Shown piece after piece: positions 7,431 to 39,299 of a DNA stretch of 58,371 nt. Source of the DNA: Clostridia bacterium (lineage in GTDB: Bacteria > Bacillota > Clostridia > Christensenellales > UBA1242); assembly GCA_050872805.1 (NCBI GenBank), contig JBNMHN010000001.1, positions 1 to 58,371 of the forward strand, in the 5' to 3' direction. Both the position numbers and the translations under genes were made by a program. Each line of letters begins with the position of its first letter. The stretch's first letter is position 1. Under the pieces are notes generated by a model. The model had not been told where the DNA came from and searched no databases. It saw only the letters and a list, made by a program, of their open reading frames with translations.

Positions 7431-7959
7431 AATCTCCCTCCTTGATGACTTTTTTTAGTTTTTTGAGCGCTTGTTGGTAGCGCCACGTGATTGTATTGAT
7501 GTTGCTGCCGAGCATTTCGGCGATTTCTCTTCTTTTGAAACCTTTGATTTGTGACAGGACAACGACTTCATATTCATCGGCGGACAAAATTTTCCTACAG
7601 TCGTCCAAGAGGCTTGCGCACGGGCGTGGGGTGGCGTTTTTGTCGCTGAGCGTGTTGATTAAGATTTCATCGTCGATGTCGGCGTGTGTCTTTTGCTTTT
7701 TCAGTATGTTGAGCGCTTTATTTTTCGCGATTGTGTATACATAATTGATGATGTTATAGTTGTCGACGTCGATATTATGCATACCTTTATATATTGCGAC
7801 GAACGCTTCTTGCACGGCGTCTTCCGCGAGGTCTTTTCGGCGCAGGACGCCGTATGCGACTGAGTACAGCAGTCGGTAGGTGCTGTTATAGAAGTCCTCG
7901 AATGCGGCGGCGCTGCCGTTTTGCATTGATTTCACTAGTGTGTTTAGTTTCTTTAGCAT
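7420..7959 (-). CDS. RNA polymerase sigma-70 family ECF-type sigma factor
   Basis: Region 2 (AEDAVQEAFVAIY) and region 4 HTH (REIAEMLGSNINTITWRYQQALKKLK). 179 aa. Confidence 0.85.
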   Translation of the reverse strand: MLKKLNTLVKSMQNGSAAAFEDFYNSTYRLLYSVAYGVLRRKDLAEDAVQEAFVAIYKGMHNIDVDNYNIINYVYTIAKNKALNILKKQKTHADIDDEILINTLSDKNATPRPCASLLDDCRKILSADEYEVVVLSQIKGFKRREIAEMLGSNINTITWRYQQALKKLKKVIKEGDYEL

Positions 7960-36469: not shown

Positions 36470-36985
36470 GCCCCATTTTTACAAAATATTTTTGCGGCGG
36501 GGATAGCCCCGCGGCTGCAGATACTGGCGGGGATAGCCCCGCTGCTGCAGGTACTGTCCCTACGCGCCATTTGCTTTCGTGGACGGCATAGTGCATTCCA
36601 TTCTTTTCACTTTTTGTTCTCGTGTGGGAATATCCCCGCCGCTGGTGCGATAGCGCACTGCTACTGGTACTGTCCCTACACACCAGCCACTTTCATAGAC
36701 GGCGAACGCGACTGCTTTCTATGCCGTACAGTTCTCGAGTGGGGATAGCCCCGCGGCTGCAAATACTGTCCCTACTCTCAACCGACTTTCGCGGACGGCA
36801 AACGCAACTGCTTTCTATGCCGTACAGTTCTCGGGTGGGGATAGCCCCGCCGCTGGTGCGATAGCGCACTGCTACAGATGCTTTCCCTACGCGTCATTTG
36901 CTTTCGTGGACGGCGTAGCACATTTCATCCTATCCGCTTCAGTTCTCGGGTGCTTTCGCACCCGCGCCAGCAATCAAGCAAAAAA
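36470..36985 (-). repeat. intergenic mosaic repeat locus R5: tandem array of L units (alternating approx 96 and approx 114 bp)
   Basis: GGGGATAGCCCCGC-type hairpins start at approx 36497, 36527, 36624, 36739, 36835 and 36948. Each full unit carries GTACTGTCCCTAC, GGACGGC and GCTTTCTATG. Every second unit has an extra GTGCGATAGCGCAC. Confidence 0.9.
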
Positions 36986-37017
36986 ACACCTTTTCAAAAA
37001 AAATACCCCCAAAATGC

Positions 37018-37065
37018 TTGATTTTCTCCAGTAACTCGACTATAATAAGAGTTAGTGGAGAAAAT
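37018..37065 (+). promoter_or_regulatory. abiE promoter TTGATT-17-TATAAT bracketed by inverted repeat ATTTTCTCCA / TGGAGAAAAT
   Basis: TTGATT at 37018-37023 and TATAAT at 37041-37046. Inverted-repeat arms at 37021-37030 and 37056-37065 (25-bp spacer). The distal arm contains the SD. Confidence 0.65.
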
Positions 37066-37647
37066 ATGATAAAAACAACAAAGATTTTGTTGGGCGAACT
37101 GTCCAATTATGCTCGTCCATATGACAAGATAAGGCGACTTGTAGCAGAAAAAAAACTTATTCCAATTATCAAGGGGTTGTACGAAACGGATGCAACCGTT
37201 TCGGGGCATTATCTTGCAGCGAGCATTTGTGGCCCCTCCTATTTGTCCTTTGAGTTCGCTTTGTCTTACTATGGACTGATTCCAGAAGCGGTTTACACAA
37301 TCACGTCTGCGACATTCAAAAAACATAAACGCAAAGAATACGATACACCATTTGGCTTTTTTACCTATCAAGATGTGCCAAAAAGTGCGTACCCTTGGGG
37401 GATTAAAATCGTCGATGAAAATGGTTACGCCTTTCAAATAGCGTCCCCTGAAAAAGCGCTTTGCGACAAACTTTATGCTTTGCACCCATTGCAAAATTTA
37501 GGCCAGTTGCAAACGCTGCTTTTTGACGATTTGCGAATTGACGAAAACGGATTTTGTAAACTAAACAAGGACGACATTGATTTTCTTGCCGATAAGTACA
37601 AAAGCAAGAATGTCACACTGCTTGCAAAATTTATGAGGAGAACTTGA
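37066..37647 (+). CDS. abiEi: type IV toxin-antitoxin / abortive infection AbiEi-family antitoxin (transcriptional regulator)
   Basis: Position immediately upstream of an AbiEii gene (1-nt gap). N-terminal wHTH-like region and a SFEFALSYYGLIPE-type segment. ATG at 37066 after GGAG. Confidence 0.7.
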   Translation: MIKTTKILLGELSNYARPYDKIRRLVAEKKLIPIIKGLYETDATVSGHYLAASICGPSYLSFEFALSYYGLIPEAVYTITSATFKKHKRKEYDTPFGFFTYQDVPKSAYPWGIKIVDENGYAFQIASPEKALCDKLYALHPLQNLGQLQTLLFDDLRIDENGFCKLNKDDIDFLADKYKSKNVTLLAKFMRRT

Positions 37648-37648
37648 T

Positions 37649-38515
37649 ATGAATCCTATTATTGATGAAATGCTGAAAAATTATAATGCGAACAATCTTA
37701 ATGACAAAAAAAATGCAATCAAAGAGATAATGCAGGAAATCGTTTTGTGCGGACTTAGCCGCGCGGGCTTTTTTGACAAGGCAGTTTTTTATGGCGGCAC
37801 GGCTTTGCGCATATTCTATGGGCTGGATAGATTTTCTGAAGATTTAGATTTTTCTCTCAGGACTCAAGACCCTAGTTTTAATCTTGAAAAGTTTTTCCCC
37901 ATTTTGGAGAGAGAGGTAAATTCGCTAGGCTTGAATGTTAAAATTGAAAACAAAGAAAAAACTTTTGATTCAGCAATCAAGTCCGCCTTTTTAAAAGGCA
38001 ATACAAAGGAACACCTTTTGATGTTTTACTCAGATAATTCGCTTGTCAAGGGGATAAATCCTGAGGAAGTCATAAAAATTAAATTTGAGATAGACACCAA
38101 TCCGCCCCCTTTTGCAACGTTTGAAACTATGTATAGGTTGCAGCCAAGCCCCTACGAAATTAGTTTGTACGATTTACCTTCGTTGTTTGCTGGCAAAATT
38201 AGCGCCGTGCTTTGCAGAGCGTGGAAAAATCGTATCAAGGGGAGAGATTTGTATGATTACATTTTTTACCTTCAAAAAAATGCGGCTTTCAATTTAAAGC
38301 ACCTGCAAGCAAGGTTGGTTCAAGCAGGATTTATCGAAGATGGGCAAACGATAACACTTGACGATGTAAAAGCGCTTTTAAACAAAAGGTTTGACAGCAT
38401 TGATTATGAGGACGCAAAAAAAGATGTAATTCCATTTATCAAAGACCCCCTCGCTTTAAATGTATGGAGTAAAGATTTTTTCAAGGCAATTACACAAAAC
38501 CTAAAAGCGGAATAA
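37649..38515 (+). CDS. abiEii: AbiEii/AbiGii-family nucleotidyltransferase toxin (DUF1814)
   Basis: FYGGTALRIFYGLDRFSEDLDFS NTase motif. 288 aa. Confidence 0.85.
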   Translation: MNPIIDEMLKNYNANNLNDKKNAIKEIMQEIVLCGLSRAGFFDKAVFYGGTALRIFYGLDRFSEDLDFSLRTQDPSFNLEKFFPILEREVNSLGLNVKIENKEKTFDSAIKSAFLKGNTKEHLLMFYSDNSLVKGINPEEVIKIKFEIDTNPPPFATFETMYRLQPSPYEISLYDLPSLFAGKISAVLCRAWKNRIKGRDLYDYIFYLQKNAAFNLKHLQARLVQAGFIEDGQTITLDDVKALLNKRFDSIDYEDAKKDVIPFIKDPLALNVWSKDFFKAITQNLKAE

Positions 38516-38518
38516 TCA

Positions 38519-38578
38519 TCCCAAAAATGCCCGATTTTCTCCAGTAACTCTTGTTTTAGTCGTGTTAGTGGAGAAAAT
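38519..38578 (+). repeat. second copy of the abiE operator region, with decayed promoter hexamers
   Basis: CCAAAAATGCCCGATTTTCTCCAGTAACTC...GTTAGTGGAGAAAAT matches 37008-37065. The inverted-repeat arms and the 25-bp spacing are identical. The -35/-10 positions read CCGATT / TTTTAG. Confidence 0.8.
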
Positions 38579-38873
38579 CGAGTATTTTTTTTGTAATTTT
38601 ACTCCGTTTTTTGCGTTTTTTGTGATTGTTTTCTTTTTGTAATTGTGGTAGTTTTTAACGATTTGCTTTATCATTATTATTTGCCATTTTTATGCTACTA
38701 AATACTTATCATTTTTATGCTACTAAAAATATTCCTTTGTTGGCGTTTTGCGCTTGGCGTTTATGTTGGACGTTCTCATATTGTCGTCATTTTTGCATTG
38801 TGCAAATTTTCCGCTTGCTTTTTGCGCAAAAAATGATATAATATGCACATAATTATTTATAAGGAGAGTTATT

Positions 38874-39299
38874 ATGTTATTAGACGAAATCAAAAAAGCA
38901 AGTATGCAAGCACTAAAGGAGCGCGACAAGGTTGCGCGCGCGATTTATGACGTTGTCATCAACAAGTGCCAACTTGCGCTTGTCGAAAAGCGCGCTAAGG
39001 GCGAAGAACTTGTCGACACAGATATTTTGCAGATTATGCAAAAGGCTGCAAAGGAACTTGCGGAAGAAAAGGAAAACTATTTGAAAGTTGGAAACGCGGA
39101 CGAGGTTGCCAACATCGAAAGACAGCAAGCGATTGTTGCTTCATACTTGCCACAAATGATGAGCGAAGACGAAATTGCGGCGGAAATTGAAAAACTAGAC
39201 GACAAGTCGATTGGCTCGGTTATGCGCCACTTCAAGCAAAACTTTGCGGGCAAGTGCGATATGTCACTTGTTCAGCGCCTCGCCAACCCACGCAAATAA
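38874..39299 (+). CDS. yqeY: GatB/YqeY domain-containing protein
   Basis: Typical YqeY length and sequence pattern. Extended -10 TGATATAAT approx 35 nt upstream. Confidence 0.8.
   Translation: MLLDEIKKASMQALKERDKVARAIYDVVINKCQLALVEKRAKGEELVDTDILQIMQKAAKELAEEKENYLKVGNADEVANIERQQAIVASYLPQMMSEDEIAAEIEKLDDKSIGSVMRHFKQNFAGKCDMSLVQRLANPRK

Follow-up and report, generated by a model that had tools for sequence, protein, structure and literature searches.

Results

Genes and base composition of the abiE cassette

The stretch of DNA analyzed here (the window; 58,371 nt, Clostridia bacterium contig JBNMHN010000001.1, positions 1-58,371) belongs to a small genome of 1.30 Mb from a gut member of the Clostridia, designated G000, and carries an abiEi-abiEii gene pair bordered by two copies of a 68-nt repeat. 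The upstream copy is the predicted promoter-operator of the pair, the downstream copy has no working promoter hexamers, and single copies of the same palindrome stand at the cassette-free sites of the two nearest species. The genes of the cassette are:

37066-37647, plus strand: abiEi, 193 amino acids, antitoxin and probable autorepressor
37649-38515, plus strand: abiEii, 288 amino acids, DUF1814 nucleotidyltransferase toxin

The two genes are bicistronic, with the start of abiEii 1 nt past the abiEi stop codon. AbiEi matched PADLOC PDLC02230 over its full length (2.8e-68) and was weak in other profiles (Pfam AbiEi_4, 0.058; NCBIfam NF047376, 7.1e-5, under its cutoff), and a PDB sequence search with AbiEi gave no match. 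AbiEii matched Pfam PF08843 (7.5e-33; 114.9 bits versus a cutoff of 22.5) and PADLOC AbiEii (2.5e-110). The AbiEi/AbiEii identity proposed in a first-pass annotation of this DNA was borne out by PADLOC for both genes and by Pfam PF08843 for AbiEii, and the cassette is a predicted AbiE type IV toxin-antitoxin or abortive-infection gene pair of the phage-defence type. A scan of the genome collection with AbiEii returned 80 loci (54-84% identity), mostly from gut Firmicutes, plus some Alphaproteobacteria and Bacteroidales metagenome-assembled genomes (MAGs), and AbiEi homologues (46-65% identical) were found upstream of AbiEii in >70 loci.

The guanine plus cytosine (GC) content of the cassette was 38.3% versus a genome mean of 39.7%, with 35% of 1450-nt genome windows equally low or lower, and its GC at third codon positions (GC3) lay at the 35th-43rd percentile of open reading frames (ORFs). 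The earlier impression of an AT-rich cassette held relative to its GC-rich neighbours (an array resembling repetitive extragenic palindromes, REP, and yqeY) but not relative to the genome, where the GC content was unremarkable. Foreign composition was rejected, as both GC and GC3 were inside the genome bulk and gave no hint of a recent arrival. From -15 kb to +11 kb of the cassette (22-49 kb of the window), no genes for integrases, transposases or Xer-type recombinases were found.

Promoter-operator upstream of abiEi

36998-37065, plus strand: repeat copy 1, predicted functional abiE promoter-operator (direct family D4; conserved family architecture)
36992-37006, plus strand: A-tract flank TTTCAAAAAAAATAC upstream of copy 1 (inverted pair I10)
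37018-37046, plus strand: sigma-70-type promoter TTGATT-17-TATAAT, 10/12 consensus match
37021-37065, plus strand: operator 1, half-site 37021-37041, centre 37042-37044, half-site 37045-37065

The TTGATT-17-TATAAT promoter described earlier was also called by the consensus scan. Copy 1 overlaps the -35, the -10 and the Shine-Dalgarno (SD) sequence in a 21+3+21 half-site layout, with the left arm of operator 1 over the -35 and the right arm over the SD (GGAG), 5 nt ahead of the ATG. The arms reach 17 nt (37021-37037 and 37049-37065; I6, 94% complementary). The inverted repeat reported around the promoter, with its 25-bp spacer, was recovered as ATTTTCTCCA-N25-TGGAGAAAAT in both repeat copies. 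A 21+3+21 palindrome over the promoter and within ~60 bp of the start codon agrees with the proposal of an operator of the AbiEi-autorepression kind, binding itself being predicted. The A-tract flank mirrors a T-tract beyond copy 2 (38582-38596; I10, 15 nt, 93% complementary), and an A-tract followed by TGC ahead of the -35 was common across the cassette family.

The 60 nt preceding the abiEi ATG had a common layout in nearly all 80 loci, consisting of an A-tract, TTGATTTTC(A/T)CC, TATAAT and GG(A/T)GAAAAT-ATG. Operator statistics were based on 71 distinct promoters, in which positions T13-T19 (TTGATTT) and those of the -10 were almost invariant. In the 21+3+21 register 81% of cells were complementary (37-53% in slid controls), cells with a double change numbered 225 (38-61 in slid controls), and the covariation score was 0.300 (≤0.099 in slid controls; 0/500 shuffles reached the observed value). 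TAAAAC occurred as a natural -10 in some cassettes.

The abiE operator of Streptococcus agalactiae has an 11-bp perfect repeat with N27, which extends to 23 bp with N3 (PMC3985639; PMC7319586), and AbiEi binding and autorepression at that operator were reported by Dy et al. (2014), who also pointed out comparable inverted repeats upstream of other abiE genes (PMC3985639). The locus in the window resembles the S. agalactiae arrangement IR1-N3-IR2 (IR, inverted repeat) in having a bicistronic operon and two inverted half-sites of ~21-23 bp with a 3-bp gap, over the -35/-10 and near the ribosome-binding site. It differs in arm sequence (ATTTTCTCC... versus TGTTGCTTTTA...) and in an AbiEi too distant for a PDB match by sequence. 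Because its geometry matches that of the S. agalactiae operator, copy 1 is taken as an element of known type, the predicted standard promoter-operator of the AbiE subfamily.

In operator 1 (37021-37065), and also in the 71 aligned promoters, the left arm is an anti-SD, TTTTCTCC, and the right arm holds the SD. From this arm complementarity it is proposed that a read-through transcript from upstream would form a hairpin hiding the abiEi SD, and that the transcript from the abiE promoter, starting between the arms, would leave the SD free. Complementarity to the SD region at the 5' end of the abiE mRNA is also found in the left arm of copy 2, which lies in the 3' untranslated region of that mRNA.

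Downstream copy and its relation to copy 1

38511-38578, plus strand: repeat copy 2, promoter-dead operator copy overlapping the abiEii stop codon (D4)
38534-38578, plus strand: operator 2, outer arms direct and identical to those of operator 1, central 15 nt inverted

A second copy of ~58 bp had been described after abiEii (38519-38578), and the repeat search extended it to 68 nt. The direct repeat D4 (36998-37065 and 38511-38578) is 76% identical, its copies lie 1513 bp apart, and no further copies were found in the 1.3 Mb of the genome. The pattern GATTTTCTCCAGTAAC-N-GTTAGTGGAGAAAAT had exactly 2 occurrences genome-wide, versus 0 for the reversed-pattern control. A chance repeat was rejected, given exact blocks of 18 nt and 15 nt in the same register within 3 kb (chance expectation ~4e-17).

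The outer arms of the two copies agreed at 15/15 and 15/15 positions in direct register, including an asymmetric G/G position, which together with the shared arm motif and spacer bears out the perfect conservation of the arms and of their 25-bp spacing noted at first. The central 15 nt matched at 12/15 positions inverted and 6/15 direct, and over the whole repeat the inverted relation (I1, 67 nt, 82%) was better than the direct one (76%). The description of the repeats as direct copies is retained for the outer arms but not for the central 15 nt. Similarly, copy 2 does read CCGATT / TTTTAG at the hexamers, as had been stated, but its core is inverted and the -10 has therefore been flipped to the minus strand, where it reads TAAAAC, and is not merely degraded. 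The absence of an ORF past copy 2 was confirmed, with GGAGAAAAT followed by CGA and no start codon.

Identity between the copies was 33/33 in the arms and 27/37 in the flank plus inverted core (Fisher p = 0.001; 0.73^33 = 3e-5). Copy 2 probably still binds AbiEi passively, since it retains both predicted half-sites.

Empty sites and orphan copies in related species

The relatives compared were the two nearest species, G006 (locus L016) and G008 (locus L017), and two more congeners, G009 (locus L018) and G005. The comparison was anchored on the gene downstream of the cassette:

38874-39299, plus strand: yqeY-like gene (Pfam PF09424, 1.3e-15), with orthologues 95% (G006) and 91% (G008) identical

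AbiEii was not found in 40 relatives, nine congeners among them, and AbiEi was not found in G006, G008, G009 and G005. One copy of the palindrome was found in G008, in the 190-nt interval from the start of a giant gene to the yqeY promoter (L017 8022-8115), and one, more decayed, at the equivalent place upstream of yqeY in G006 (L016 ~7440-7510). In G005 synteny was kept and there was no palindrome. The search for the palindrome covered ten genomes of the genus, G000 included, and counted two copies in G000 and one each in G008 and G006, all at the abiE/yqeY locus, which rejects a dispersed repeat of the REP or miniature inverted-repeat transposable element (MITE) type.

A comparison with relatives lacking the cassette had been suggested as a check, and each of the two empty sites proved to hold one copy. 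Neither empty site carried a duplication, the outcome that would have counted against the earlier interpretation, and the single copies support the view, raised among the earlier possibilities, that the repeats are a recombination scar or cassette border.

The orphan copies resembled copy 2. Both orphans and copy 2 read TAAAAC where copy 1 has TATAAT, and the asymmetric arm bases of copy 2 were present in the G008 orphan and at 1/2 positions in the G006 orphan. Copy 2, reversed, matched the G008 orphan at 40/45 positions (core 14/15), and it matched the G006 orphan at 36/45; copy 1 matched the G008 orphan at 37/45. The orientation of the core relative to yqeY was as follows:

Copy 1: plus
G008 orphan: plus
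Copy 2: minus
G006 orphan: minus

Given the shared TAAAAC, the shared arm bases and the orientations, the orphans are predicted to descend from the copy 2 lineage, and the promoter-less element would be older than the split of the three species. Orphans formed as right-arm crossover hybrids that kept the core of copy 1 were disfavoured, in that both share TAAAAC and the G008 orphan has the asymmetric arm bases, an argument weakened by the natural TAAAAC -10s.

The orphan arms have decayed in these AbiEi-less species (26/30 and 24/30 in the best orientation), and the G006 orphan showed no folding (z = -1.0). The arm identity between copies 1 and 2 and the decayed orphan arms fit AbiEi binding and also gene conversion.

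Identity at the locus was 88.2% between G000 and G006, 83.6% between G000 and G008 and 84.1% between G006 and G008, consistent with the wider window, and the locus tree was ((G000,G006),G008).

In G009, ~130 nt upstream of yqeY (L018:1868-1884), CCCAAAATGCTTTATTT matched the repeat flank and part of the -35 at 16/17 positions, with no palindrome after it; this may be a much older relic or conserved host sequence.

The REP-like hairpin array at 36470-36985 stops 7 nt upstream of the A-tract that flanks copy 1. The array was shorter in G006 at the same place (L016:7089-7318) and there was none in G008, so the intergenic region is a hotspot of structural change independent of abiE.

Second operators in other cassettes

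The survey for downstream copies covered ~85 other cassettes, and a full downstream operator copy was found in none of them; the nearest cassette, with an AbiEii 84% identical, had no downstream copy within 380 nt. In L060, from a Clostridiaceae MAG, the exact 21-nt block of the -35 and left arm, CTTGATTTTCACCACATAAT, recurred 53 nt after the abiEii stop (L060:1894-1914) and was followed by divergent sequence. This block may represent another cassette border that arose, independently, from an operator. With no full copy in the others and a half copy in L060 only, the idea that the cassette generally carries a downstream operator was rejected.

Second operators were frequent upstream. In 10/12 same-family cassettes the promoter operator was preceded, at a distance of 61-62 bp, by a tandem second operator without a promoter:

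L137, L139-L141, L143-L147 and L149: tandem second operators, ~45-110 nt upstream of abiEi (for example, L141, oriented 801-845)

No second inverted-repeat pair was found upstream of copy 1 in the window, where the extra pair is 1513 bp downstream. Extra operators are recurrent in the family, and their placement beyond the operon is unique to the window among the cassettes examined.

In the L140-L149 group the SD-like arm of the second operator is followed by ATC-GTG, in frame with abiEi and with no stop over 20 codons, so an N-terminally extended AbiEi is conceivable in this group.

The cassette was present in 15/400 sampled genomes of the family. The nearest AbiEii (84% identical), at L136, which is the same as L040 (G135:C182, a contig of 1285 nt), came from another genus of the same family. 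Identity of AbiEii across genera (84%) exceeds that of YqeY (≤59%), and this indicates horizontal exchange of the cassette within the bacterial family.

Two further look-ups added little. A metagenome scan with YqeY for more empty or occupied sites gave nearest matches only 63-67% identical, and an exact-protein look-up for further close strains gave only one 100% identical contig, with no match for AbiEii.

Copy 2 as a hairpin and the spacer before yqeY

38523-38592, plus strand: extended palindrome, candidate terminator hairpin of the abiE operon (I2, 26-nt arms)
38597-38797, no strand assigned: T-rich spacer, ~200 nt, no counterpart in G006 or G008

The hairpin is preceded by an A-tract and followed by a T8 run, and it is a longer palindrome than that of copy 1, the right side of copy 2 mirroring the upstream flank of the promoter (AAAAATGCCCG / CGAGTATTTTT). 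The RNA fold of copy 2 was -29.2 kcal/mol (z = -8.6), with a U-run behind it. With copy 2 placed right behind the abiEii stop and ~200 nt ahead of the yqeY promoter, a role as terminator or insulator, ending the abiE transcript before that promoter, is plausible. No known RNA family was recognized (best Rfam E-values 0.24 and 0.43, far under gathering scores).

Homology to G006 and G008 resumes at ~38797-38803, at the yqeY promoter. The T-rich spacer had no significant copies elsewhere in the genome, and it included a 25-nt direct repeat in two copies (38678-38727) and the TTTTTTGTRATT motif twice.

Discussion

Gain or loss of the cassette between operator copies

Copy 2 is best explained as an old orphan operator, with the two repeats as the borders of a recombination-mediated gain or loss of the cassette (probability about 0.6). 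At copy 1, two molecules of AbiEi would occupy the 21-nt half-sites and so block the -35, the -10 and the SD; we infer this binding and repression because the design is family-wide and has a precedent in S. agalactiae. Copy 2 would be an operator paralogue without a promoter, older than the split from the two nearest relatives. The two copies would form the direct-repeat borders of a 1.5-kb presence/absence polymorphism, in which the abiE genes were deleted in the relatives or re-inserted in G000, either way by homologous recombination between operator copies, and the outcome would be one orphan operator at each empty site. The exact 18-nt and 15-nt blocks of the direct repeats could support such a deletion.

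Two histories would lead to the present arrangement. In history (a), the ancestral locus was complete, with copy 1, the abiE genes and copy 2, and recombination within the left part of the repeats then removed copy 1 together with the genes, separately in G006 and in G008. In history (b), the ancestor had only an orphan from an older loss, and G000 regained the cassette by recombination with the orphan or by allelic exchange through the flanks.

Several points weigh against this interpretation. The locus is compatible with both directions of change, (a) and (b). On the tree ((G000,G006),G008), loss requires two independent deletions and gain requires a precise re-insertion at the orphan. Relative to copy 2 and the G006 orphan, the entire G008 orphan lies in reverse orientation, and the core of copy 1 is flipped with respect to all three, so both histories have to assume extra small inversions. 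The indel is not a clean repeat-to-repeat event, as the G000-specific T-rich spacer of ~200 nt is accounted for by neither history. Gene conversion is an alternative cause of the arm identity between copies 1 and 2. The consensus terminator scan did not call the copy 2 hairpin, because its loop is 15 nt and its stem AT-rich; a typical intrinsic terminator has a G+C-rich stem, a loop of 3-8 nt and a U-tract next to the stem. Sampling was thin, with one genome per species.

Alternative explanations of copy 2

An unlikely, though not negligible, explanation is that copy 2 is a selected auxiliary operator, by which AbiEi would loop the 1.5-kb segment, or which would titrate AbiEi or act as a roadblock, and would thereby fine-tune autorepression and insulate yqeY. 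Copy 2 retains both half-sites in the same 45-bp geometry, the arms stayed identical (33/33) while the flank and core diverged, and the orphans decayed where AbiEi is absent. Promoter-less second operators, always 61-62 bp upstream, in 10/12 same-family cassettes point the same way, as do the four inverted repeats with negative cooperativity used by Rv2827c and the bending of DNA by AbiEi (PMC7319586). However, a second operator downstream was seen in no other cassette examined, so its position lacks conservation; an element that survives as an orphan without AbiEi needs no function to explain its presence; and gene conversion or recombination in the arms can yield their identity.

The promoter of Rv2827c-Rv2826c in Mycobacterium tuberculosis has four inverted repeats, in two tandem pairs within 131 bp upstream of the start codon (PMC7319586). 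The window shares with it an additional, promoter-less operator pair for a repressor of the AbiEi family. Unlike the tandem layout of Rv2827c, which the ten same-family cassettes do match, the extra pair of the window is beyond the operon, and a second operator 1.5 kb downstream, past the toxin gene, is not described in PMC3985639 or PMC7319586.

A recent insertion with long target duplication, in which the incoming cassette would have duplicated a pre-existing host sequence of 58-68 bp, is decidedly improbable. Long target duplication is known from restriction-modification units (Nobusato et al., 2000; extended by Furuta et al., 2010), as outlined in PMC2853133. Under the formal definition given by Furuta et al. 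(2010; PMC2853133) the locus would be classed as such an event, with a complete gene unit, an insert of <20 kb, a direct repeat of >30 bp, a repeat that aligns to a single copy in insert-free genomes, and no mobility genes nearby; parsimony on the locus tree also needs one gain only. The resemblance to the restriction-modification units is that of a small addiction or defence unit without mobility genes, with direct repeats >30 bp that are single-copy in relatives lacking the unit. The difference is that the repeat is of the cassette's own promoter-operator type and its copies are old. The supposed target has the AbiE-family promoter-operator design and is not ordinary, unrelated host DNA, so an abiE promoter would already have been at the site before the insertion. 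Copies 76% identical with an inverted core do not make a fresh duplication, and the GC and GC3 of the cassette are genome-typical.

It is an improbable extension of these observations that in this AbiE subfamily the operator palindrome, besides serving as a repressor site, is a substrate for duplication, inversion, excision and re-insertion of cassettes, the operator of the antitoxin thus defining a recombinase-free minimal mobile unit, in addition to looping and insulation of the whole operon by AbiEi at copies 1 and 2.

That 36992-38596 is a transposase-less mobile unit (resembling a MITE or a mobile insertion cassette, MIC, with terminal inverted repeats of ~67 nt) or an integron/Xer module with the palindrome as recombination site is barely credible. 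In its favour, the flanking copies fit better inverted (I1, 82%) with mirrored outer A- and T-tracts (I10), the core of the palindrome changes orientation between genomes, and L060 repeats the left half-site after abiEii. Against it, the palindrome is at one locus only in the ten genus genomes, the empty sites keep a whole copy where a clean target would be expected, no target-site duplication was recognized beyond the repeats, the interval -15/+11 kb is free of integrase, transposase and Xer-type genes, the arms do not fit the attC R''/R' consensus, and the genes depend on the repeat as their promoter. An integron attC or Xer/dif module in particular was disfavoured, with no recombinase nearby, the arms off the attC core consensus and the site unique in the genome.

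Significance for the AbiE family

Recombination between operator copies, the explanation preferred here, has a parallel in solo long terminal repeats (LTRs), which are relics of recombination between flanking direct repeats. The orphan operators are like solo LTRs in that one repeat would be left after loss of the internal genes and the relic decays without its binding protein; they are unlike them in that the repeats are operators of 45-68 bp and not element termini, and in that gain and loss are both possible.

AbiE systems are widespread phage-defence and addiction modules, and gain and loss of two-gene cassettes without mobility genes are poorly documented. The finding is incremental, in that the operator is predicted to be of a known kind and the role of copy 2 is a candidate one. 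The locus provides a natural series, with an occupied site that has operators at both borders and two empty sites at different stages of orphan decay. This series, together with the tandem double operators of the family, suggests that operator duplication is common in this AbiE subfamily. Copy 1, copy 2 and the two decayed orphans are a ready set for measuring AbiEi recognition, and the repeats may both modulate autorepression and ease loss and regain of the cassette by homologous recombination.

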